From positions 244,241 through 308,240 of the forward strand of contig JACKGC010000001.1 of NCBI GenBank assembly GCA_020632135.1: a stretch of 64,000 bases of DNA, in the 5' to 3' direction. Source of the DNA: Candidatus Nomurabacteria bacterium. GTDB taxonomy: Bacteria > Patescibacteriota > Minisyncoccia > Phycocordibacterales > UBA918. A program made the translations under genes and the position numbers. Numbering within the stretch: the first letter of the stretch is position 1; every line of letters begins with the position of its first letter. A model generated the notes under the pieces. It was not told the origin of the DNA. It did no database searches and saw only the letters and a list, made by a program, of their open reading frames with translations. Below, piece by piece: positions 35,782-63,571 of this stretch.

Positions 35782-35852
35782 GCGGGTGTAGTTTAGTGGT
35801 AAAACGACTGCCTTCCAAGCAGTAGTCGGGGGTTCGATTCCTCTCACCCGCA
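35782..35852 (+). tRNA. tRNA-Gly (anticodon UCC), no encoded CCA
   Basis: Cloverleaf by eye: gcgggtg/cacccgc acceptor, anticodon loop cTTCCaa, T-arm ggggg-ttcgatt-cctct. Confidence 0.9.
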
Positions 35853-35980
35853 CAAAATTTAACTTCGTCAGAATTAAGGCGAGATGACCGCCGCCGCGAA
35901 GCGGCGGCGGGAGGTAGAAAACCCCGTCGCGTAGCGACGAAATGGCTGGGCGAGGGCACGGAAAAGTGGGCGGTTTTGTT
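35850..35980 (+). repeat. 131-bp inverted repeat, left copy (IR-a)
   Basis: Reverse complement of 37402-37532 with 3 mismatches. GC-rich, contains the ccgccgccgc-gaa-gcggcggcgg hairpin. Confidence 0.9.
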
Positions 35981-37365
35981 ACGAACCGAATGGTTCGTTC
36001 CGATTTTTTGGACGAAGTCGGCAATTTCGGAGAAATTGTCAGACGAGGACAAAAAAGCAGCTTGTTTCGTATCCAAAACCCACTCCCGCAAGGGTTCGAC
36101 CCAAGTATTTCCCCGACGTTCAAAATCTTTCTTCTTCTCGTTCAAAGTGGCGAGAGAGCGCATAGTGATGTCTTTTTTCTTAAGATAAATCTCCTTTGGT
36201 ATATCGCCGTCCAAATACGCAGACACCAGTTTTTCCATGCGCTCCTCGTCCGCTTTGATTCTATCGGAAAGATTTTGAACATCACTTTGCGATGAGTTAG
36301 TTTCTTCGTGCTCCCATTCGTCAATTTTCGCCAACATCCAATCAGCATACTCATCGCAAAGTGATGTTGTTTGAAGCCGATCCTTGATTTGTGCAACAAG
36401 GTCTTTTCTTGCACATAGCCTTGCGAGCAAGCGCCGTGCTTTTTGGTACAACGGTAATAGCGATAGATACCGCCATTGCCTTTCGCATGTTGCGCCGTGA
36501 ACATACCACCACACTCACCACAACGGAACAGACCTAAAAATGGAAAATCATGGCGATTTCTTCGCTTCGGCGCACGCGCCTTGCTCGCAAGAACTTTTTG
36601 CACGGCTTCAAACAATGTCGGGGGAAATAATTGGTTCAAATGTGCCGTCAAACCATTCTCCGTTATGGCGCACAAAACCGAGATATGCTCGGTTGCTCAA
36701 CATATGTTTGACGGCACATTTGGCAAGTGGCTTTCCTTTCGAACTGGTAACGCCTAAATCCGCCAAAAACTGCGACAGAGAAACCAGTCCATGAGTACCT
36801 TTCACATACTCCTCAAAAGCGCGCTGCACAATCTTCGCATTCACCTCATGTGGTTCTATCTGCCGAGTGCGTGGATTGTTCACATACCCAAATGGCGCTT
36901 TGGTGAGCCACTCGCCACGTCGCAGTTTTTGGCGGATGCCTCTTTTTACATTCTGCACCAGATTGTCTGAATAGTATTTACTTTGCCCAAAAGCCACTTG
37001 CAACATAAAGAGCCCTTGCGGAGTGGGTTCAAACCAAAGGTCGGAAAGCGCAAAGACACAATTCTCTCGGTGTCTACTGCGTAAATGACGCGCCCGCCGT
37101 CAATGCTATTTCTTGCCAAACGGTCGGGGTGCCACGACAAAATCCCGCTTGCTTCTCCCACCTCAATGCGCGTCATCATTTCATTAAAAATCGGACGACC
37201 GGGTGTCTTTGCGCTTTTCGACTCTTGAAACTCCGCTAGGATTTCAAGATTTTCTTTACGCGCAAACTCTCGCAATTCAAAAAGTTGTGCCTCAATGGAC
37301 ATGACTTGTTTATCATCATCTTCAGTACTCTTGCGAGCGTAGAGAAAATATTTTGGTTTGTTCAT
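35981..37365 (-). pseudogene. Large serine recombinase, disrupted by at least 3 frameshifts (3' end uncertain)
   Basis: Four overlapping frames give MNKPKYFLYARKSTEDDDKQVMSIEAQ (catalytic Ser domain), a recombinase domain (GYVNNPRTRQIEPHE), a zinc ribbon (RCGECGG...YYRCTKK) and a coiled-coil tail. Confidence 0.8.
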
Positions 37366-37401
37366 AATTTTGAAAAAATTATTTTTGGATACGAAACAAG
37401 A

Positions 37402-37532
37402 AACAAATCCGCCCACTTTTCCGTGCCCTCGCCCAGCCATTTCGTCGCTACGCGACGGGGTTTTCTACCTCCCGCCGCCGCGTCGCGGCGGCGGTCATCT
37501 CGCCATAATTCTGACGAAGTTAAATTTTGTGC
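37402..37532 (-). repeat. 131-bp inverted repeat, right copy (IR-a')
   Basis: Pairs with 35850-35980. Its outer 5 nt (tgtgc) are shared with the start of the 570-bp repeat. Confidence 0.9.
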
Positions 37533-38097
37533 AGAAATACTGACCTTTGCTCGAACCCATTTCGAGAAAGGACAATGATCGCAACGCGCGGAGCGCGAGG
37601 TGATGCGGACGCGAAGCGTACGCATTGGAGTCCGTATGCGCCTCGGTCGCGCTCCGCTTCGCTACGCGCGAGCAACCCCAAAAATTTCCTTGCCATTTTT
37701 TGCGGCTCCTCCCCCGACCCCTCCGCCGAAAGGCGAAAAAGAAGAAAGGAAATTTTGGGTTGCGCCGTCGGGTACACATAATTATAAACTATGATGGTAT
37801 ATTCTACAATCGGTTATATTCTATTATTACGGTCATGGCAAACAAATACAGAATTAAATATCAAAAATTCATCCAACAGCTTCGCAAAGCTCGCCTTGAA
37901 GCTGGGTTTACTCAGGTTGATGTTGGCAAGAAGTTAAAGAAGCCACAGGCGTATGTGTCAAAGATTGAACGAGGCGAGCGTAGAGTTGATGTTGTTGAGC
38001 TAGAGGAGTTTGCGAAGCTATACAAAAAAAGACCTCGAATATTTTACAAAATAGCCCATTAATCAGTGTTGGCTGTGGATAACTATTTCTTAAATTT
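37528..38097 (+). repeat. 570-bp inverted repeat, left arm
   Basis: Reverse complement of 40713-41281. The only difference found by eye is A7 versus A6 at about 38025. Confidence 0.9.
37835..38062 (+). CDS. XRE-family HTH regulator (RM controller C-protein-like), copy 1, C-terminus altered by the A7 run
   Basis: MANKYRIKYQKFIQQLRKARLEAGFTQVDVGKKLKKPQAYVSKIERGERRVDVVELEEFAKLYKK, then a frameshifted tail relative to copy 2. Confidence 0.7.
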   Translation: MANKYRIKYQKFIQQLRKARLEAGFTQVDVGKKLKKPQAYVSKIERGERRVDVVELEEFAKLYKKRPRIFYKIAH

Positions 38098-38208
38098 TTT
38101 CATATGCCAAATAAGCTAGAAGAATCTCTCATATTTTGGGAACTTTCAAAATTAATTTTATGTGCTAGAGAGCTTTTCTTTTAGGTCGAGAAATGTTCTA
38201 ATTTAGAT

Positions 38209-40714
38209 ATGAAAGACGGATACATAAAAGATTATTCAACAGATAAGCTGGTCGATCTCCGAAAGCCGGAGGAGATTGTTCGGCAGAATTACGAAAAGGA
38301 GTTGCATGAAGACTACGAATATGCCAAGGAGCAAATGGATATTGAAGTCCCCATACAACGCGGCGAAAAAAACTCAGCCAAAAACAAAAAACGAGCGCGC
38401 TGACATTGTTGTGTACGAAACCACAGACAAAAACAAAAAGAAGTCAGTCGGCTGACATATTGGGTATTGTAGAAACCAAGCGCCCCACTCGAAAAGAAGG
38501 AATCAAGCAATTGATGAGCTACATGACTGCAAGCTCTGCACTTTGGGGAGTTTGGACTAATGGAACTGATATTGAATATCTATTCCGCGACCCCAAAGTG
38601 GCAAAATCAAACAGGATTATATTTTTTCAAATTCCTAAGAATGGAGAAACGTTTGAAGATATTGGGCGAATCTCTAAGAAGAACCTGCAACCTGCCAAGA
38701 GTTTGAAGTCAGTATTCCACCGATTGCTAAATATCTTGTACGCAAATACAAACATCAGCCGTAAAGAAAAACTTGGGGCAGAGATGATTCGTCTCATTTT
38801 CTGTAAAATCATTGACGAGAAATACGACCAAGAAGCTCTGCCGAAGTTTAGGGTTGGTTTTGAAGAAAACCCGAAAGACGTTGCAAAGCGCATCAAAGAA
38901 TTGTTCCAACAAGCAAAAGACGAATTTGGGCATGACGGGGTGTTTGAAAAGAACGAAGAAATTACTCTCGATCCAAAGTCGATTGCTCTTGTAGTCGGGC
39001 AGCTCGAAAAATATAGCCTAATGAAAACTGAAAAAGACGTCGTTGGTGACGCTTTTGAGGTTTTGCTGAAAGCAAACTTGTTGGAGAGAAAGGAGAGTTT
39101 TTACACCAAGGAAATTGTGAAAATGGCAGTAAAGGTTATTGACCCAAAGCCAGAAGAAACAATAGTTGACCCTGCTTGTGGTAGTGGTGGTTTCTTAATT
39201 TTGCACTCGAACATGTTTGGTCTGAAATGAAAAAACAAACCAAATACAGAGGAATGACTGAATCGCAGTTTGATATTGCCAAGAAAAACATGGCAGAGCG
39301 TTGTGTCTTTGGAATTGATAAGGAAAGCGACTTGGTAAAATTGCCAAAGCGTATATGGCGATAATTGGAGACGGTAAAAGTGGTCTGGTCTCAGATAACA
39401 CACTGCACTTACCTGAGGATTACAATCAGAAAGCAAAGGAGCTCTTCGTCGAAGACGAAGAGACAAACACCCTAAAAAGTTTGACATCGTTCTAACCAAT
39501 CCTCCGTTTGGAAGCAAAATTAAGGTTGTAAAAGAAGACTCAAAGCAATTTGATTTAGGACACACTTGGAAAAAGAGGGTGATACTTTTGTAAAACGGAT
39601 AAAGTAAAACCAACCGAACCGCAGGTTCTGTTTGTAGAAGCGTTGTTTAGAAATGTTGAAAGACGGAGGTAAGCTCGCATTGGTATTGCCTGAGACATAT
39701 TTTCATGCACCGTCAGTAAGATACGTGCTTGATTACTTAATCAAAGGAACAATATAACTTCAATTATCGACCTGCCTCATAACACGTTTCGTCCGTATTG
39801 TAATGCAAAAACACTTCTTATTACTCTTGAAAAAGGCGTGCCACAGCAGGAAGAAATTACTATGGCGGTGTGTGAAGAAATGGGACACGACCATAATGGA
39901 CAGCCAATTTATCGTTACGACGAAGATAAAATGAGTTTACTGATGAGATATGGAATGATAGCGATAATATTTTGAAAGAGCTAGACAATCCGTCCGATCC
40001 AAACAATGAGTACGTGTTCAAAGTGAACGTAAACGACATACAAGGAAGTGTTTATGTTCCAAGATATTATTGGAAAAAGCGTATTTCTGACGTAGAAAAG
40101 GAAGCCAAAAAGAGGGTTTGAATTAGTGCCCGTAAAAAATTGATACAAGAAGGAGTCATCAAAAGCTTCTCGGGACATGGTTCTCCAAAATCTCATTTCA
40201 AGGGCGTGGCGAAGTGCCGTATATCCGCGTAGCTGATATCGTAAACTGGGCAGTCTACAAAAACCCGACTGCGTTCATTCCAGAATTTGAATATGAGCGC
40301 GTTAAAGGTAACCAGTTTGATTTGCAAGAAAAGGATGTGCTTTTGTAAGACGTGGTAGTTACCGTATAGGTAGTGTCGCAATCGTCTCAGAATTTGATAC
40401 GGATGTTCTTTTAACAAAGAGATACAAACTTTCCGTGTCGTTGATGAGGATAATAAATACGGCATTGATGCGTTCTATTTGCTTTATTTATTCTCACACA
40501 TTCTTACTCAAAAGCAGTTGTACGGAAAGATTTTGATTGATACGACATTGCCAAATATTGGTGACCGTTGGAAAGAGCTCAAACTACCTATTGCAAAAGA
40601 TCCAAAAAGGTTGAACAGATGAAAACTCAACTGCGAAATGTGTTTGAGAAAAAATGGGAAGGTCAAAAAGGAATTGAGGCACTAACTAAAGAATACGGAA
40701 GATTCACTACTTAA
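38209..40714 (+). pseudogene. Type IIG-like restriction-modification fusion (PD-(D/E)XK HsdR_N-like nuclease + N6-adenine methylase + TRD), many frameshifts and stops
   Basis: Fragments: ADIVVYE...GIVETKRP; methylase motif I DPACGSGGFLI; motif IV DIVLTNPPFGSKI; HsdS-like TRD (VPYIRVADIVNW...RRGSYRIGSVAIV). At least 10 frame breaks. About 38% GC. Confidence 0.75.
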
Positions 40715-41281
40715 ATTTAAGAAATAGTTATCCACAGCCAACACTGATTAATGGGCTATTTTGTAAAATATTCGAGGTCTTTTTTGTATAGCTTCGCAAA
40801 CTCCTCTAGCTCAACAACATCAACTCTACGCTCGCCTCGTTCAATCTTTGACACATACGCCTGTGGCTTCTTTAACTTCTTGCCAACATCAACCTGAGTA
40901 AACCCAGCTTCAAGGCGAGCTTTGCGAAGCTGTTGGATGAATTTTTGATATTTAATTCTGTATTTGTTTGCCATGACCGTAATAATAGAATATAACCGAT
41001 TGTAGAATATACCATCATAGTTTATAATTATGTGTACCCGACGGCGCAACCCAAAATTTCCTTTCTTCTTTTTCGCCTTTCGGCGGAGGGGTCGGGGGAG
41101 GAGCCGCAAAAAATGGCAAGGAAATTTTTGGGGTTGCTCGCGCGTAGCGAAGCGGAGCGCGACCGAGGCGCATACGGACTCCAATGCGTACGCTTCGCGT
41201 CCGCATCACCTCGCGCTCCGCGCGTTGCGATCATTGTCCTTTCTCGAAATGGGTTCGAGCAAAGGTCAGTATTTCTGCACA
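40713..41281 (-). repeat. 569-bp inverted repeat, right arm
   Basis: Pairs with 37528-38097 and ends in GCACA at the island edge. Confidence 0.9.
40756..40974 (-). CDS. XRE-family HTH regulator (C-protein-like), copy 2 (72 aa, probably the intact version)
   Basis: Same sequence as copy 1 up to ...EFAKLYKK, then DLEYFTK. Confidence 0.75.
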   Translation of the reverse strand: MANKYRIKYQKFIQQLRKARLEAGFTQVDVGKKLKKPQAYVSKIERGERRVDVVELEEFAKLYKKDLEYFTK

Positions 41282-41502
41282 GCCAACATGAAAAGTCGTC
41301 CCGAAAGGGATGGCTTTTCTGTTGCTGCGGTGCGGAGTGAAGAAAGTGCCTTGAGGCACTTTCGTGAGGAATCGAACGCCGGAATGATGTGAGGAGTTTA
41401 CGACGAACGAATGAGGCGTGTCCCGCGGCACCTGCTAATTTATGAGGTACGAAATAAATTAGGTTGGTGACCGTCAGGACGATTCCTCTCACCCGCACAA
41501 AA
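41282..41502 (+). other. tRNA-linked element A: terminator hairpin + hairpin + 63-nt conserved core + hairpin + copy of the tRNA-Gly(UCC) 3' 18 nt
   Basis: cgattcctctcacccgca(caaaa) at 41480-41502 duplicates 35835-35857. Core 41369-41431 is 55/63 identical to 54465-54527. Confidence 0.6.
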
Positions 41503-41731
41503 CGTTAAGAAGAACAGTCCCTGCGGACTGTTTTTTAGTTTTGTGAAGCGGAGCCATGTTTTCTGCGCCTTTCCTAGCGCAGAAAACAGGCGAGCTGGGG
41601 CAGCAGGTACTTAGTGCTCACAGCTAGCGAAGCTAGTGAAAACACTTAGTAACCTGCGCCTGACATGGCCTTATCTAACCGCGAACAAAATAGTGATGCG
41701 AAGGTGACCGATTCCTCTCACCCGCACAAAA
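41503..41731 (+). other. tRNA-linked element E: second tandem unit ending in another copy of the tRNA-Gly(UCC) 3' end
   Basis: Terminator at 41508-41536. Hairpin 41558-41587 with loop ctttccta. cgattcctctcacccgca(caaaa) at 41709-41731. Confidence 0.55.
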
Positions 41732-49203: not shown

Positions 49204-49328
49204 AGTTAGATTATAAGCTTAGATTCAGCGCTCAAACGAGAAATGCTGTGCATTTCCAGGCTGAGTACTGAAGACAGGCGAACCTGTCATAGCAATAAAA
49301 GAACACTTAGAAAGGACGACTTGCTGGC

Positions 49329-49375
49329 GGGGGGGGGGGGGGGCGGGGCGCGCGGGGGGGGGGGGCGCCCCCCCC
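49329..49375. repeat. G15-c-G4-cgcgc-G12-cg-C8 homopolymer block
   Basis: Read directly. Lies 8 nt 3' of the stop codon of the 49383-50372 gene. Confidence 0.95.
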
Positions 49376-54183: not shown

Positions 54184-54220
54184 CTTCACTCGGTCATGCC
54201 GTGCTGCAAGCAAAGCTTGC

Positions 54221-54283
54221 GTTGATGAATTTTTATAAAGAAACAGCGAGCAAGCTCTCTTTTCTTTATAAAAATTCATCAAC
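54221..54283. repeat. Perfect 23-bp AT-rich inverted repeat with 17-nt spacer
   Basis: gttgatgaatttttataaagaaa ... tttctttataaaaattcatcaac. Confidence 0.9.
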
Positions 54284-54310
54284 CTTCGCACGTCACGACT
54301 CTCGCTGCAT

Positions 54311-54381
54311 CGGGGTGTAGCATAATGGTAGTGTACACGGTTTGGGACCGTGCGGCCCGGGTTCGATTCCCGGCTCCCCGA
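54311..54381 (+). tRNA. tRNA-Pro (anticodon UGG), no encoded CCA
   Basis: cggggtg/ctccccg acceptor, anticodon loop tTTGGGa, T-arm ccggg-ttcgatt-cccgg. Confidence 0.9.
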
Positions 54382-54597
54382 CAAAATGTAATAAGTCCTG
54401 GCTTTTTGCCAGGACTTATTACATTTGGAGCGGGAGAGCAAGCAAACAGTTTTGCTTGCATCGGGGATCAAACGCCGGAACAATGTGAGGAATTTATGAC
54501 GAACGAGTGAGGCGTGCCCCGCGGCACTACGTATCTTTGCAAATACTTGGAGCAAAGTACGTTAGTGACTGTCAGGACGATTCCCGGCTCTCCGACA
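54382..54597 (+). other. tRNA-linked element B: terminator hairpin + hairpin + conserved core + hairpin + copy of the tRNA-Pro 3' 18 nt
   Basis: cgattcccggctctccga(ca) at 54578-54597 (1 mismatch to the tRNA). Core at 54465-54527. A terminator follows at about 54600-54635. Confidence 0.6.
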
Positions 54598-54666
54598 TCG
54601 CTAGAAAGGCGCCAGCATAGCTGGCGCTTTTTGTAGTTTGTATCCGATCATAACTACAATTTATGC

Positions 54667-54690
54667 ATTGTGTTTCACGTGAAACACAAT
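54667..54690. promoter_or_regulatory. Perfect 24-bp palindrome attgtgtttcac|gtgaaacacaat
   Basis: Read directly. The core GTTTCACGTGAAAC recurs at 55226-55239. Confidence 0.45.
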
Positions 54691-54784
54691 GCTTAGTTAC
54701 ACATGAAACAGTACTGTTTGCATCACGACAACAAGCAAAGTACAAGATTAACAGTAACTATCCAGCGATACACGAAACAAGAAA

Positions 54785-55207
54785 CTACAGGACAACATTT
54801 GGTATGTATTTTATAGAGGCGTACTTTTCACGTGGAACTATTCGGACCGCAACGACGTCAATTTCCCACTCTCCATCATAGTTATTCTCCATGATCCAAC
54901 TTTCAATCGCTCGATTAAGTCTTTGGATCTTATTGTGGTGTACATTCTCTTCAGGACGCCAGGTTCCACGTGAAATGGCTTGTTCTAGATCCTGCTTTGT
55001 TTCATATGAAACAGTCTTTACTTCCACAAAACGTACTATTTGGCCTGATCTACCTGTTCCACGTGCAACAATGTCAATCTCACCCCATTTCTTAAGGTAA
55101 TTTGTATCTATAATGACAAAACCCTGCTTCTTAAGGTGTGTGGCGGCAATCTCTTCACCCCAGGCACCAGTTTGGTTTCTTTTGCCTCTTTTTTGACTCT
55201 GTTTCAT
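54785..55207 (-). CDS. YraN family (UPF0102) endonuclease-like protein
   Basis: GAWGEEIAATHLKKQGFVIIDTNY..GEIDIVA...VRFVEVKT is typical of YraN. Confidence 0.85.
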   Translation of the reverse strand: MKQSQKRGKRNQTGAWGEEIAATHLKKQGFVIIDTNYLKKWGEIDIVARGTGRSGQIVRFVEVKTVSYETKQDLEQAISRGTWRPEENVHHNKIQRLNRAIESWIMENNYDGEWEIDVVAVRIVPREKYASIKYIPNVVL

Positions 55208-55225
55208 GTGTAACAGTTGCAATAT

Positions 55226-55239
55226 GTTTCACGTGAAAC
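55226..55239. promoter_or_regulatory. Palindrome GTTTCACGTGAAAC 19 nt upstream of the yraN-like start (candidate operator)
   Basis: Exact repeat of the 54672-54685 core. A half-degenerate copy gtttcatgtgaaaa lies at 55249. Confidence 0.45.
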
Positions 55240-55584
55240 GTAATAATAGTTTCATGTGAAAATTGACCTTAATTATAGCACTATATTATAAAGGACATTT
55301 CTACTTTAGACCTGTGGATTGTCCTTTATCCACATATCCACTCGTTTATCCCCAGTTTTAAGCAGTCTTGGAGCAAGGTTATGTGGAGTTTGATAAGTGT
55401 GCTTCTGTGAAGGTGAGCAAGGATTGCTCAGTAATCATATGTTTAGCGTAAGTCAGCTGTTCCTAGCTCTAGGAATGGAGCTAGGAACATGCTTCCGGCT
55501 CACAAACGGGCACGAGACTGAAGCAGTTCAGTTTCTAAAGTAAAAGCTGGATTCTTAAAAATCCAGCTTTTACTTTACCTGTTT

Positions 55585-55751
55585 GTGCGGCCAGGGAGAA
55601 TCGGTCAGGAGTCAGTTATTTTCATAGTCGCAAGCTCCTTGAAAATATACTGCTCACGACCCTGACTCCTTCCGCTTCGCTCCAGTCCGTCTTTCGATTC
55701 TCCCGCACTCCTACTCAAAACGGGCGCAAGGCCCGTTTTGAGTACTCGTAG
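55585..55751 (-). other. tRNA-linked element C downstream of tRNA-Gly(GCC), ending in a copy of its 3' 18-19 nt
   Basis: gtgcggccagggagaatcg at 55585-55603 repeats 55751-55769. Terminator hairpin at 55711-55745. Internal complement cgattctcccgcac at 55695-55708. Confidence 0.55.
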
Positions 55752-55822
55752 TGCGGCCAGGGAGAATCGAACTCCCGACTAATCCTTGGCAAGGACTCAT
55801 TATACCACTTAACCATGGCCGC
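55752..55822 (-). tRNA. tRNA-Gly (anticodon GCC), no encoded CCA
   Basis: Minus-strand gcggcca/tggccgc acceptor, anticodon loop tTGCCaa, T-arm cggga(g)-ttcgatt-ctccc. Confidence 0.9.
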
Positions 55823-55827
55823 ATATT

Positions 55828-56496
55828 CTACTGTGACAGCTCTTCGGTCGATAATTCGATCCAACGGCGTAGCTTACGCTTCAAAACTGTGCTGCCGATT
55901 ATAGTATTTCCAACGCCATAATGCAATGGCTTCTTGTTGGCGGAGCCATTTACAAATTGGCTCTTGTAAAATTGTACGTACGGGAGGGAAGTGAGGCGCT
56001 GCCACTTCTTCATGCATACCGCTTCGCTATGTCCTCCGTATAGTTGCAGCCATATGCGAAACTGTTTCTTCTCTACTCCAAGATACTCAAGTGCAAAACG
56101 TATAAACATCCTATGTACTTCCATCTGAGCTGAGGAGATTCTGATGGTGCGTTCGTTCACGAGGTCTCCGAGACACAAGTAGAGCGTCAAACCAGCTGTA
56201 AAGAGGGCATCTTTCTTGTAGTGTTTATACTCAACCTCAGCACTACGAGCTGCTTCGCGGTAGCGCGCAATCCGTTCACCACCACGAGCTTTATTGACTA
56301 ACTGCAGTCGTTTCGCATTCTCTGTGCCAGCTCGCTTCTTGTTCTGTCTGGTTACATGAGCTGAAAAAGCTTTATTTTGCAACCATTTTGAGGCGGTTGA
56401 CTTCGAGATCTCACAGTACTTTGCGATCTCCTCTAAGGTGAAGCCCCGCTTGCGTAAACCAAGTGCCTGCTCGTATTTCTCCTGATTTCGAACCAT
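55828..56496 (-). CDS. HTH-domain protein, function unknown
   Basis: N-terminal RGFTLEEIAKYCEISKSTASKWLQN (HTH). The rest is unassigned. Stop lies 5 nt from the tRNA. Confidence 0.5.
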   Translation of the reverse strand: MVRNQEKYEQALGLRKRGFTLEEIAKYCEISKSTASKWLQNKAFSAHVTRQNKKRAGTENAKRLQLVNKARGGERIARYREAARSAEVEYKHYKKDALFTAGLTLYLCLGDLVNERTIRISSAQMEVHRMFIRFALEYLGVEKKQFRIWLQLYGGHSEAVCMKKWQRLTSLPYVQFYKSQFVNGSANKKPLHYGVGNTIIGSTVLKRKLRRWIELSTEELSQ

Positions 56497-56615: not shown

Positions 56616-56687
56616 GCGCCCATGGTGAAATGGATATCACAACTGACTTCGGATCAGTCGTTCTGGGTTCGAGTCCTGGTGGGCGCA
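56616..56687 (+). tRNA. tRNA-Arg (anticodon UCG), no encoded CCA
   Basis: gcgccca/tgggcgc acceptor, anticodon loop cTTCGGa, T-arm ctggg-ttcgagt-cctgg. Confidence 0.9.
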
Positions 56688-56717
56688 CATAAAGTACTTC
56701 TGGTAAAATAACCAGAC

Positions 56718-58190
56718 ATGGTGATAAAACCCACTGACATTCCAATTGAAGTAAAGCAAGTCGCAAAAGCCTTGGAAGACAAGGGTTTTGAAGCGTATGT
56801 GGTTGGTGGCTGCACCCGCGACCTCATGCTCGGGAAGAGCCCAAAAGACTGGGACCTCACCACCAACGCGCGGCCAGAAGAGATCCAAGCTATATTTCCA
56901 GAGCATTATGCCAATAATGACTATGGCACGATCGGGGTGAAAACTGAGTCGGAAGATTTGTCACTACAGATCATTGAGGTTACACCCTACCGCACTGAAA
57001 GTGGCTACAGTGACGCCAGGCGGCCAGATGAAGTGACTTTCGGCGTATCCCTTGCGGAAGACCTTAAACGACGTGATTTTACGGTTAATGCCCTCGCGTA
57101 CCGCATCTCAACCGAGGAGTTGGTCGATAACTACGGCGGGGCAGAAGACCTGGCCGCGAGGCGCCTACGAGCTGTTGGTGACCCAGATGAACGTTTCGGC
57201 GAGGATGCCCTTCGTATGATGCGTGCGGTGCGCCTTGCGGCCGAGCTCGACTTCGTGATCGACCCAGAAACCATGACGGCCATCGCCCGACATAGCCAGC
57301 AGTTAAGCCGTATTTCCACCGAGCGCATCACCAGTGAATTCATTCGCACCATCATGTCACCGACCCCAATGCAGGGTATTATTTTCATGGAAAAACTCGG
57401 TTTACTCGAGCAATTTCTGCCTGAACTACGTATAGGAATCGGGATAGAGCAAGGTGGAGCACATCTATATGACGTGTACGAGCATCTTTTGCGTACTATG
57501 CAAGCTGCGGCCGATAAAAACTACAAACTCTCGATGCGTTTGGCGGCACTTTTTCATGACATCGCCAAGCCCCAAACTCGCCGTACCGGAGGCAAAAACA
57601 AGCAGTACACCTTCTTCGGCCACGAGGTAGTTGGTGCCAAAATGACCTTGCAAATTATGGATAGAATGAAGTTCCCACGGGAACTGACCGACGAAGTGGT
57701 GAGCCTGGTGCGTTGGCACATGTTTTTTGCGGACCCAGATGAGATAACCTTGGCAGCGGTACGCCGTACTATTGTTCGAATTGGGGAGGATCATATTGAA
57801 GACCTGCTTAATCTGCGTGTCTGCGACCGTATTGGCATGGGCCGCCCCAAGGAGCAGCCGTTTCGCTTCCGTAAATATAAAGCTATGGTGGATGAGGCGC
57901 TCCGCGACCCGATCTCGGTCAAGCTACTGAAGATCAACGGTGATCGTATCATGCAGCTCACCGATGAGAAGCCAGGGAAGCGTCTTGGCTATGTTTTACA
58001 TGCTCTTTTGGAGGAAGCGCTTGATGATGCAAGCAAGAATACGGAGGAACATATGGAAAAGCGTGCCCTTGAATTACTACAATTACCTGAAAATGAACTC
58101 CTTGAGCTGGCAGAAGCGGGGAAGCGCCGCCAAGCCGAGGAAGAGGCTACTGCTCTAAAGGACATCAAGCGCGAGCACAAAGTTGGATGA
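56718..58190 (+). CDS. cca: CCA-adding tRNA nucleotidyltransferase with HD domain
   Basis: GGCTRDLMLGKSPKDWDLTT and RRDFTVNAL (PolyA_pol head), plus HD (LFHDIAKP). Confidence 0.9.
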   Translation: MVIKPTDIPIEVKQVAKALEDKGFEAYVVGGCTRDLMLGKSPKDWDLTTNARPEEIQAIFPEHYANNDYGTIGVKTESEDLSLQIIEVTPYRTESGYSDARRPDEVTFGVSLAEDLKRRDFTVNALAYRISTEELVDNYGGAEDLAARRLRAVGDPDERFGEDALRMMRAVRLAAELDFVIDPETMTAIARHSQQLSRISTERITSEFIRTIMSPTPMQGIIFMEKLGLLEQFLPELRIGIGIEQGGAHLYDVYEHLLRTMQAAADKNYKLSMRLAALFHDIAKPQTRRTGGKNKQYTFFGHEVVGAKMTLQIMDRMKFPRELTDEVVSLVRWHMFFADPDEITLAAVRRTIVRIGEDHIEDLLNLRVCDRIGMGRPKEQPFRFRKYKAMVDEALRDPISVKLLKINGDRIMQLTDEKPGKRLGYVLHALLEEALDDASKNTEEHMEKRALELLQLPENELLELAEAGKRRQAEEEATALKDIKREHKVG

Positions 58191-63119: not shown

Positions 63120-63200
63120 GCTGGAGTGGTGAAATTGGTAGACACGTACGCTTCAGGTGCGTATGTCGCAAGACGTGGAGGTTCAAGTCCTCTCTCCAGC
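63120..63200 (+). tRNA. tRNA-Leu (anticodon CAG), long variable arm, no encoded CCA
   Basis: gctggag/ctccagc acceptor, anticodon loop tTCAGgt, variable arm tgtcgcaagacgt. Closely parallels E. coli tRNA-Leu(CAG). Confidence 0.9.
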
Positions 63201-63399
63201 ACAAAGAAACCCCGCGTCCCTGCGGGGTTTTGATTGCTGGAGAAGCAAGGTGCCGGCGCACCTTGCGTGAGGGCTTGAAGCCGCGGAGCATGTGCTGAGC
63301 TGGCGAAGCACGGCGAGCGGCCGTCCAAGAACGCGAGGCATTTCTAGAGTGTGCGAATAGAAATGTCCGCGATTCTGGGACAAGTCCTCTCTCCAGCAC
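63201..63399 (+). other. tRNA-linked element D ending in a copy of the tRNA-Leu 3' 18 nt
   Basis: Terminator at 63203-63230. gctggaga (63235-63242) pairs with tctccagc (63390-63397). caagtcctctctccagca(c) at 63381-63399. A terminator follows at 63405-63440. Confidence 0.55.
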
Positions 63400-63571
63400 C
63401 ACAATCCAGGCCGGCGCGCGAAGCGCGCCGGCCTTTTCTTGCCCTTACTTTCCAAACCCCTTGCCTTTTTGCCCCCCTATGCTTTAATGCTTCTAACGAA
63501 ACCGCGCTCTTGAAGTTGTTGTAGATTTGAAGAAGTGACGTTTTGTTTATACATAAAAGCAATATATATTT

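Follow-up and report, generated by a model that had tools for sequence, protein, structure and literature searches.

The 3' ends of tRNA genes are classic landing sites for genomic islands, and they are thought to be read by integrase proteins. Islands of this kind (tDNA islands) insert at the 3' ends of tRNA and transfer-messenger RNA (tmRNA) genes and regenerate the gene end, with the displaced 3' fragment forming a repeat that often starts in the T-loop, and they can build up into arrays (PMC4383910). Here we analysed 64,000 nucleotides from a Candidatus Nomurabacteria bacterium (GenBank assembly GCA_020632135.1, contig JACKGC010000001.1, positions 244,241 to 308,240, forward strand; this whole stretch is referred to as the window) and describe an undescribed superfamily of insertion modules of about 130-230 bp, which encode no protein and lie 3' of tRNA and tmRNA genes in Kaiserbacteria-like Patescibacteria. 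Read 5' to 3' in the sense of the tRNA, each unit consists of a terminator hairpin of its own (T1), one or two antisense segments (g1 and g3) that are mostly split by a second hairpin (P2), a core of several helices, and a sense copy of the tRNA end 6-25 nt long. The units are discrete insertions with filled and empty sites among relatives, they have a covarying structure and antisense segments that track the tRNA, and the structure is biased to the plus strand. Searches of the full-text literature gave no description of such elements.

Like tDNA islands and cis-mobilizable elements (CIMEs), the units lie at tRNA and tmRNA 3' ends with the displaced 3' fragment present as a direct repeat. Unlike them, they show neither an adjoining integrase in the annotated loci (the window and L016-L022) nor a sign of derivation from an integrase-bearing parent at the site; they are gene-less and only 130-230 bp long, they have a covarying core and an internal antisense copy of the attachment site (att), and a given core occurs at many tRNAs. 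A second point of comparison is the bridge (seek) RNA of the IS110/IS1111 insertion sequences, an element-encoded, non-coding structured RNA of about 150-200 nt that determines where insertion takes place by pairing with target as well as donor DNA (PMC11208160). The units resemble it in having a structured strand complementary to target and donor, but there is no DEDD-type recombinase gene in or beside them, one antisense region serves for both partners instead of two loops, and the repeat is 6-25 nt long rather than a 2-nt core. No sequence or Rfam similarity between the units and IS110/IS1111 bridge RNA was found.

Folded single-stranded sites offer a further precedent. The attP(+) site of CTX phage and the attC sites of integrons have two imperfectly complementary arms that flank a variable region and fold into a duplex copy of the chromosomal site, with bulges and other extrahelical features, structure being kept more than sequence; they mimic dif or carry R'/R'' boxes (GTTRRRY), and use XerCD or IntI. 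The g1 and g3 segments of the units likewise pair with the terminal copy, with a bulge in mid-helix and the inserted P2 hairpin, but the mimicked site is a tRNA end that varies by unit, a conserved multi-helix core lies between the arms, and no GTTRRRY-type box or dif-like site is visible in the unit sequences read. The IS200/IS605 elements and their non-autonomous derivatives, the palindrome-associated transposable elements (PATE), are short, strand-specific hairpin elements that insert 3' of a sequence paired by an internal guide near the left-end hairpin; this guide is 4-5 nt long with non-canonical pairs, the element depends on a Y1 HUH transposase and has no duplicate of the target at its own end. 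In the units the guide is 10-28 nt long and the unit end repeats the target, and no Y1 HUH transposase was found among the open reading frames (ORFs) scanned in the window.

Retroviruses and long-terminal-repeat retrotransposons have a primer-binding site of about 18 nt that is complementary to the 3' end of a specific host tRNA. The complementarity of the units differs in that it enters the trailer of the gene, not the CCA tail, and a hairpin interrupts it, and a primer-binding-site reading was rejected because the guides match the genomic trailer and not CCA. Group II introns, one source of reverse transcriptase, appear to be lacking here, none having turned up in Patescibacteria in a survey of 95 complete genomes (PMC13011429); the published tRNA introns of Patescibacteria, which are located in the anticodon loop, are unrelated to the units (PMC13011429). 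The units also differ from tRNA-like structures that serve as substrates of RNase P, RNase Z or the CCA-adding enzyme, as no helix ends at 1-72 with a free discriminator and a T arm. We regard the units as a new variant among the site-specific elements that insert at tRNA ends, and also as a new superfamily of structured RNAs.

Repeated tRNA 3' ends and the units of the window

There are five tRNA genes in the window (ARAGORN, Rfam), and the 3' ends of four of them, Gly(UCC), Pro, Gly(GCC) and Leu, recur downstream, in agreement with a prediction made from the sequence alone (the original prediction). The same prediction placed no unit at tRNA-Arg, and neither the repeat search nor a scan with the covariance model introduced below found one downstream of that gene within the window. 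The tRNA-Gly(UCC) 3' end, CGATTCCTCTCACCCGCACAAAA, occurs at 35835, 41480 and 41709, where 0.17 matches are expected by chance, and the copies of the other three ends lie at 54578-54597 (Pro, one mismatch), 55585-55603 (Gly(GCC), minus strand) and 63381-63399 (Leu). A unit of 150-215 bp stands directly 3' of each of tRNA-Pro, tRNA-Gly(GCC) and tRNA-Leu. The same layout had been proposed for all four tRNAs, but at tRNA-Gly(UCC) a 5.4-kb island lies between the tRNA and the first unit, element A. Two tandem units were also proposed there, and elements A and A2 both exist, although A2 is of another subtype and has no evident antisense segment. The genes and units are as follows:

35782-35853, plus strand: tRNA-Gly(UCC), target gene (ARAGORN, Rfam), with the proximal repeat copy at 35835-35853 (repeat search)
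41282-41502, plus strand: element A, type 1 (sequence, fold, pair counts; covariance-model match of 185.8 bits); T1 hairpin 41285-41323, g1 41330-41340, P2 hairpin 41342-41363, g3 41366-41377, P4 domain with GA-rich loops 41376-41419, P5'/P5/P6 domain 41420-41479, terminal tRNA-Gly 3'-end copy 41480-41498 with identity extending to 41502
41503-41731, plus strand: element A2, type 4; T1 hairpin at about 41511-41536, conserved block GTGAAGCGGAGCC...GGCGAGCTGGGGCAGCAGGTACTTAGT, GGTGAC, terminal copy 41709-41731
54311-54382, plus strand: tRNA-Pro(UGG), target gene (ARAGORN, Rfam)
54383-54597, plus strand: element B, type 1 (sequence, fold; covariance-model match of 165.8 bits); T1 54384-54426, g1 54431-54438, P2 54438-54459, g3 54462-54473, P4 domain 54472-54515, P5'/P5/P6 domain 54516-54577, terminal copy 54578-54597
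54604-54632, plus strand: terminator-like hairpin 3' of the distal copy of element B (terminator scan)
55585-55750, minus strand: element C, short type 2, without P2 (sequence, fold; weak covariance-model match, E = 8e-4); T1 55714-55742, continuous antisense segment GTGCGGGAGAATCGAAA 55693-55708, core 55604-55692, terminal copy 55585-55603
55751-55822, minus strand: tRNA-Gly(GCC), target gene (ARAGORN, Rfam)
56616-56688: tRNA-Arg (ARAGORN, Rfam)
63120-63202, plus strand: tRNA-Leu(CAG), target gene (ARAGORN, Rfam)
63203-63399, plus strand: element D, Leu type (sequence, fold; covariance-model match of 72.5 bits, E = 1.5e-18, over 63226-63407); T1 63207-63230, g1 TGCTGGAGA 63235-63243, P2 63245-63266, g3 GAGGGCTTGAA 63269-63279, core 63280-63380, terminal copy 63381-63399, then CCA
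63409-63437, plus strand: G+C-rich hairpin and T run 3' of the distal copy of element D (sequence reading)

The core identity of 55 of 63 positions first noted between elements A and B was exactly reproduced. The motif GTGACYGTCAGGA is common to both just before the tRNA copy, and their P2 and P6 hairpins occupy the same positions with unrelated sequences, again as predicted. Element A2 has no clear antisense segment and was missed by the covariance model; it has a homologue at the same locus in UBA3466 (L013 7725-7922; 76% identical over the stretch compared) and another in L022, one of the related loci considered below. The counterparts of element D in L017 and L019 are 82-84% identical to it. 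Two simpler accounts of the units were rejected. A small peptide encoded in the core does not fit a shared MRR(V/A)PRH start that, by eye, diverges immediately and has stops present, and a degenerate tRNA pseudogene does not fit antisense segments that complement the 3' strand, T-loop and trailer included, and are not copies of the tRNA 5' strand.

The fold and the tRNA-matched antisense segments

The core of the units is built of P4, with GGA/GA and GA/GA internal loops, followed by P5', P5 and P6. Plain MAFFT and RNAalifold analysis of all subtypes pooled did not recover P1 and P3 because the registers differ between subtypes, and we therefore used hand-drawn helices, a covariance model and duplex folding. 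In nine type-1 sequences, the hand-drawn helices are paired in 92.9% of cells, as against 28-47% when the helices are slid, with double changes at 19 of 39 pairs and a covariation score that was reached by none of 500 shuffles. A covariance model built from nine type-1 units was then scanned over 232 kb at E <= 1 (E-values are rough) and finds 23 units, including several whose terminal copy is too short or decayed for the repeat search; the Leu type is recovered and element C weakly so, and this one model covers most subtypes. In the 23 matches 92.5% of cells are paired (37-45% when slid), double changes are present at 45 of 47 pairs and the covariation score is 0.516 compared with 0.159 for shuffles, although this alignment was fitted to the model, which inflates the pair counts and makes them supporting rather than independent evidence. 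The homologues with compensatory changes anticipated by the original prediction are thus present.

The 2-bp helix inside P4 reads AT/AT, AC/GT, GC/GC, CT/AG or GA/TC in different units, and P5 is a long-range helix, CGGCACC/GGTG(A)CCG, whose L018 version, CGGCTCT/AGAG(A)CCG, keeps the helix. A local hairpin proposed earlier for this region (gtgYc-ccgc-ggcac) is disrupted by the L018 changes; covariation favours the long-range P5, which replaces it, and the local hairpin is probably not a real fold. Reading of the sequences reveals an apical motif, stem-GA-G-loop-C-GA-stem, in types 1, D and 3. The helices have 37 G.U pairs against 17 A.C pairs, and the duplexes between guide and target repeatedly use G.T (there are four in L011), both of which suggest that it is the tRNA-sense strand that folds. 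A structured single strand on the tRNA-sense strand is strongly supported by covariation.

This agrees in part with the earlier suggestion of an RNA closed by a tRNA-like acceptor helix: the structured tRNA-sense strand is borne out by covariation, but the closing helices are not a faithful mimic. The P1 helix includes the discriminator as well as 1-6 bases of the trailer, and types 1, 2 and D have a copy of no more than half the T-loop. We rejected a faithful acceptor-stem mimic because P1 extends past the discriminator, and since the closing helix ignores this boundary the units are not tRNA-like structures in the strict sense. No sigma-70 promoter belonging to the units was seen around elements B and C, where a single stretch (54200-56000) was scanned, with 0 sites against 3.0 expected. 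Rfam 15 returned only tRNA and tmRNA at the gathering score and nothing credible at E <= 10 over 54300-55830, and the Rfam families considered (group I intron, ribozymes, tmRNA and Y RNA) were rejected, as their covariance models do not match the units.

The antisense complementarity spans about 20-28 nt and runs from the T-loop through the 3' strand of the acceptor to the first trailer bases of the tRNA that the unit follows, with g1 and g3 usually split by P2 and the whole terminal copy paired. In helix P3, g3 pairs with the T-loop/T-stem part (GAGGAATC/GATTCCTC in A, and CGGGGATC/GATTCCCG with one G.T in B); the corresponding g3 pairings are GAGGGCTTGAA/TTCAAGTCCTC in D and GGGAGAATCG/CGATTCTCCC in C. 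In P1, g1 pairs with the acceptor part (GTGCGG(A)GTGA/TCACCCGCAC in A, CGG(G)AGAG/CTCTCCG in B and TGCTGGAGA in D). A complementarity of elements A and B to their own tRNA copies had been pointed out before; it is real and larger than was thought, but the pairings then given (gtgagga with tcctc..tcac, and tcgggga with tccccga) are not in the best register, which is that of P3 plus P1.

When the elements were compared with 10 tRNA ends, the cognate end was the best partner for 16 of 20. The tRNA-Gly(GCC) acceptor reads CCTACCCGCA in L018 and CCAAGCCGCA in L021, and g1 changes in a complementary way (TGCGGGTAGG and TGCGGCTTGG). Two Arg units, whose terminal copies are only 6-7 nt long, have segments after P2 (CCAATGTGCA and CCTTGGTGCA) that match the tRNA end together with its trailer (TGCAC followed by ATTGG, and TGCAC followed by CAAGG). 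The units at tRNA-Val and at tmRNA have cores that are identical except for the tip of the P6 hairpin, and their g3 segments differ, each suiting its own neighbour. The tRNA is a better partner for g3 than the copy within the unit in 8 of 12 comparisons, as g3 also covers the T-loop GTTC, and the g1 pairing often runs into the proximal trailer, with 15 perfect pairs in L019 on TCTCCAGCAC followed by TAGAA. Minimum-free-energy folds of transcripts from the tRNA to g3 have the 3' half of the tRNA paired with the guide across T1. The match of the antisense segment to the tRNA is thus supported as a fact of sequence, and to this extent the guide-like segment of the original prediction stands; a role in the choice of target would be a further step, considered below.

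Occurrence, insertion and modularity in relatives

All sequences used are metagenome assemblies. Collections of genomes and metagenomes were scanned with exact 19-22-mer patterns, and only matches adjoining a tRNA or tmRNA were kept; most matches were chance. Nine related genomes or contigs yielded about 30 units, which lie at tmRNA and at seven tRNA species; those from the metagenome scan follow tRNA-Val (L011), tRNA-Glu (L015), a Glu-like repeat (L012) and tmRNA (L010; confirmed by Rfam). In seven syntenic loci of relatives (L016-L022), 12 of 30 tRNA genes have their own 3' end repeated within about 400 nt downstream, and some 40-50% of the tRNA genes in the loci examined have a unit 3' of them. 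A scan of viral contigs with the core pattern gave only two matches, both by chance in coding sequence. Every copy found is a complete unit of 130-230 bp with the common architecture, and some of the distal copies are decayed (L013, L018 Pro, L016). The units have no conserved ORF and their neighbours are housekeeping genes. No integrase lies beside a unit in the annotated loci (the window and L016-L022), and the Xer-like integrase gene that occurs in L018 and L022 adjoins none.

The presence of units varies among relatives at tRNA-Pro, tRNA-Gly(GCC), tRNA-Arg and tRNA-Leu, and tandem units occur. In four relatives the gap from tRNA-Gly(GCC) to the next gene is about 205 bp long and includes a native terminator, CACCTGC..GCAGGTG, and in L018 a T1, unit and copy are inserted between the tRNA and that same terminator. 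At tRNA-Pro and tRNA-Arg the flanks are rearranged and give no clean comparison of filled and empty sites. The 5' half of the T1 of element B (54384-54403, AAAATGTAATAAGTCCTGGC) closely resembles the tRNA-Pro terminator of L017 (6872-6910, AAAATGAAATAAGTCCGGCT), where there is no unit. One interpretation offered earlier was accretion of elements into tRNA 3' ends, leaving CIME-like scars; the filled and empty sites, the tandem units and the native terminator after the distal copy are consistent with accretion, but the units are complete and adjoin no integrase in the annotated loci, and they are not the decayed ends of integrase-bearing islands.

The units are also modular. T1 moves with the unit, as the Leu-type T1 is unchanged whether its unit is first (L019) or second (L017) in an array. 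Two units in L017 differ by 1 nt over about 130 nt of core and copy, indicative of a recent duplication, and have unrelated 5' modules, and element A and the L019 Gly(UCC) unit have T1-g1-P2-g3 in common and different cores; modules are therefore exchanged between units at the conserved g3/P4 boundary. Each core type is found at 3-5 different tRNAs, and cores that are 82-100% identical are spread over seven different tRNAs and tmRNA. Element A is 92.8% identical to the UBA3466 unit directly 3' of tRNA-Gly(UCC), in spite of a neighbouring protein that is 81.5% identical and a 100-nt stretch upstream of the tRNA that is about 50% identical and essentially unalignable, and we conclude that the unit is under selection or was recently exchanged.

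Two arrays are more complex. In L018 (3701-3800), tRNA-Pro is followed by an 83-nt spacer, a 29-nt duplicate that includes the whole T arm, and then a type-1 unit; the duplicate is a different kind of remnant within the array. L021 (7230-7470, minus strand) has a composite unit in which a type-1 terminal copy ends after GGTTTCGATTA and is followed by a type-3 core, whose g3 (GGGAATCGAAA) suits a different tRNA, with the unit ending in TTTACCCCAAGCCGCA; this is either a nested insertion or a recombinant.

The island at tRNA-Gly(UCC) (35855-41276) separates the tRNA from elements A and A2, such that A begins 5.4 kb downstream of its tRNA. It contains a large serine recombinase gene split over three frames (35900-37440, minus strand) with Resolvase, Recombinase and Zn_ribbon_recom domains. 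In UBA3466 (Patescibacteria; from the genome-collection scan), the counterpart of element A directly follows tRNA-Gly(UCC), with cacccgcaca joined to gccaacatg and no island between them, and the island is therefore a later, separate insertion exactly at the boundary of tRNA and element A. The sequence GCACA is present at 35850 and 41277 and inverted at 37528, and an inverted internal junction of the island, tttctgcaca joined to aaattt, resembles an intact attP. The arms of a perfect inverted repeat of about 570 bp with one 1-nt offset (37528-38097 and 40713-41281) each encode the same XRE-type helix-turn-helix protein; the 2.6 kb between them contain HSDR_N_2 and N6_Mtase (methylase) fragments, and the arrangement represents an invertible segment or else an artefact of assembly. 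The recombinase gene lies between the arms of another inverted pair (35850-35980 and 37402-37532). In L017 (17330-17485), the sequence upstream of an orphan Leu-type unit, ending in caggttcgagcatggttaaataaagacaca, is homologous to the right end of the window island, ending in gggttcgagcaaaggtcagtatttctgcaca, and related islands therefore have a common insertion point, directly behind the GCAC(A) of either a tRNA end or its copy, with two genomes and two different tRNAs represented. The serine recombinase was rejected as the enzyme that mobilises the units, since it is in three-frame fragments, belongs to an independent insertion with no counterpart in UBA3466, and is of a kind that produces no long repeats.

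Some further features of the tRNA loci were seen. CCA follows the distal tRNA-Leu copy (63381-63402 in the window; about 14987-15006 in L017) but not the end of the functional gene, and the situation is reversed at tRNA-Gly(GCC) of L018; insertion thus alters whether CCA is encoded by the gene. The gene for the CCA-adding enzyme (56718-58190) lies directly 3' of tRNA-Arg; the enzyme places the source in Candidatus Kaiserbacteria, and many relatives have proteins 75-90% identical to it. Between the terminal copy of element C and a conserved intergenic block there are about 230 extra bases that the relatives are without (within 55223-55584), with strong hairpins at 55536-55577 and about 55456-55500, and these may be remnants of further units. 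The palindromes GTTTCACGTGAAAC and TTACACATGAAACA, at 54664-54712, 54993-55015 and 55218-55244, flank the UPF0102 gene (54785-55222) and are kept in L016-L022; the conserved block, CTGTGGATAAA...GGATAAAGGACAATCCACAG, is located between that gene and tRNA-Gly(GCC) in seven of seven relatives. Palindromes and block are probably regulatory sites or a small RNA. A long G-rich tract (12-14 G runs) lies at 49323-49367 within a region of overlapping ORFs.

Pairing as a proposed determinant of the insertion site

The reading that we favour, if tentatively, is that the units are a new superfamily of non-autonomous modules, in which a plus-strand RNA or single strand reads the attachment site by pairing and a recombinase acts in trans. 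The tRNA-sense single strand would fold, and its antisense segments would pair with tRNA-end sequence, the partner being the terminal copy of the same unit or, across T1, the end of the tRNA itself. Most likely the strand would be an RNA made by read-through from the tRNA promoter, given that no promoter-like site was seen in the stretch scanned around elements B and C. The pairing would mark the attachment site for the recombinase, and the insertion site would be set largely by nucleic-acid complementarity, with one guide reading both the target (the tRNA end) and the donor end (the terminal copy). A single guide for both would explain a direct repeat of variable length and imperfect identity, and a site defined by base pairing is the simplest model that uses the gene-less insertion at tRNA ends, the tRNA-sense fold and the antisense segment that changes with the tRNA; units of this kind may still be moving. 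A bolder version, in which the units are the RNA component of a programmable system for tRNA-end insertion, with one hairpin-split guide for target and donor and a compact host-encoded or helper-encoded recombinase acting on the complex, has a real if lesser chance of being right.

A number of observations weigh against site selection by pairing. No candidate for the recombinase was found among the genes examined, and neither an excised form nor a same-strain read of an empty site was seen. A conventional integrase acting in trans would likewise yield repeats of tRNA ends. The combinations of core type and tRNA could come from gene conversion between resident units, without retargeting; both the GTGAC motif and the g3/P4 boundary (TCGAA-GCCGGA) show conservation, and it is at this boundary that exchange is seen. 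The model does not explain how guide and copy would change jointly when a new tRNA is colonised. The Leu guide of L019 matches the unit's own copy, and not the host tRNA, at one T-loop position, and type-4 units such as A2 and some Arg units have little or no antisense segment. The inflated pair counts of the 23-sequence alignment belong here as well. Comparison of orthologous tRNA loci, suggested at the outset as a check for presence or absence with junctions exactly at the repeat, shows the unit before the native terminator in L018, but the type-4 unit of L022 is separated from tRNA-Gly(GCC) by a terminator of native appearance, which does not suit a simple insertion inside the repeat. The likeness between the T1 of element B and the L017 terminator is a misfit of the same kind.

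The alternative closest to what is known is that these are conventional integrase-dependent mini-elements, CIME-like, for which recombination between a tRNA-end attP and attB is carried out by a tyrosine integrase whose gene lies elsewhere, on a phage or helper element; the folded RNA would then be cargo, and pairing of antisense and copy would close or stabilise it or give processing signals. The repeat of a 3' fragment starting in the T-loop, the tandem arrays, tmRNA as a target and a native terminator that follows the distal copy all belong to the tDNA-island signature (PMC4383910), and the fit of the L019 Leu guide to its own copy also agrees with it. We nevertheless consider it rather unlikely, as no integrase or remnant lies beside any of the approximately 30 units in loci with genes called or ORFs scanned, and it does not explain cores that are 82-100% identical at seven tRNAs and tmRNA, which is unusual for att sites read by protein; nor would closure of an RNA need g3 to favour the T-loop of the tRNA over its own copy (8 of 12) or g1 to enter the proximal trailer. 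The folded strand could instead be single-stranded DNA, with antisense and copy rebuilding a duplex tRNA-end site, as in CTX attP(+) and integron attC, for a host Xer-type or HUH enzyme, or with the flanking target paired to the internal guide, in the manner of IS200/IS605. The imperfect inverted repeat of the site (interrupted by a mid-helix bulge or mismatch and by an inserted hairpin), a strictly strand-specific orientation, a guide that spans the junction of tRNA end and element left end, and the missing promoter-like site in the stretch scanned are all compatible with this, and the tolerance of G.T cannot separate RNA from single-stranded DNA. It is unlikely in view of the many short helices and conserved GA-rich internal loops, which are more typical of RNA, and of the fact that no HUH transposase was found in the window ORFs scanned and that the Xer-like integrase in L018 and L022 adjoins no unit.

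Yet more unlikely is a domesticated function that serves the host, in which the units are tRNA-linked small RNAs or cis-regulators whose antisense segment pairs with the upstream pre-tRNA 3' half in read-through transcripts; maturation or termination would be affected, the distal copy would be a competitor, and spread would be by local duplication and gene conversion rather than transposition. The predicted minimum-free-energy pairing across T1 between the guide and the 3' half of the tRNA, the 93% identity of same-locus units between genomes with diverged flanks, and guides that follow acceptor-stem changes of the host tRNA are in keeping with such a role, but it accounts poorly for presence that differs among close relatives, for tandem and nested units, and for the same core at unrelated tRNAs and tmRNA when most tRNAs have no unit. 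That the units are non-functional debris, either decayed distal arms of ordinary islands or chance repeats, is scarcely credible. Some distal copies are indeed decayed (L013, L018 Pro, L016), but the uniform architecture, the strong covariation, conservation far above that of the flanking DNA and repeat counts far above chance contradict it; the decayed ends of integrase-bearing islands envisaged at the outset as the refuting case are not what was found, the units being complete and the only nearby island being an independent insertion. Overall, the observation behind the original prediction is partly confirmed and its interpretations are partly supported.

If insertion by pairing is correct, the units would stand for a class of site-specific recombination guided by nucleic acid that is new, differs from the bridge RNAs of IS110 and is abundant in ultra-small Patescibacteria; if pairing sets the site, nature would have, besides bridge RNAs, a second way of programming recombination through base pairing, here in organisms with genomes smaller than 1 Mb and few enzymes. 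Even otherwise, they constitute a new and abundant structured-RNA superfamily, one that shapes tRNA loci, replaces tRNA terminators and the ends of tRNA genes, and can mislead the annotation of Patescibacteria genomes.

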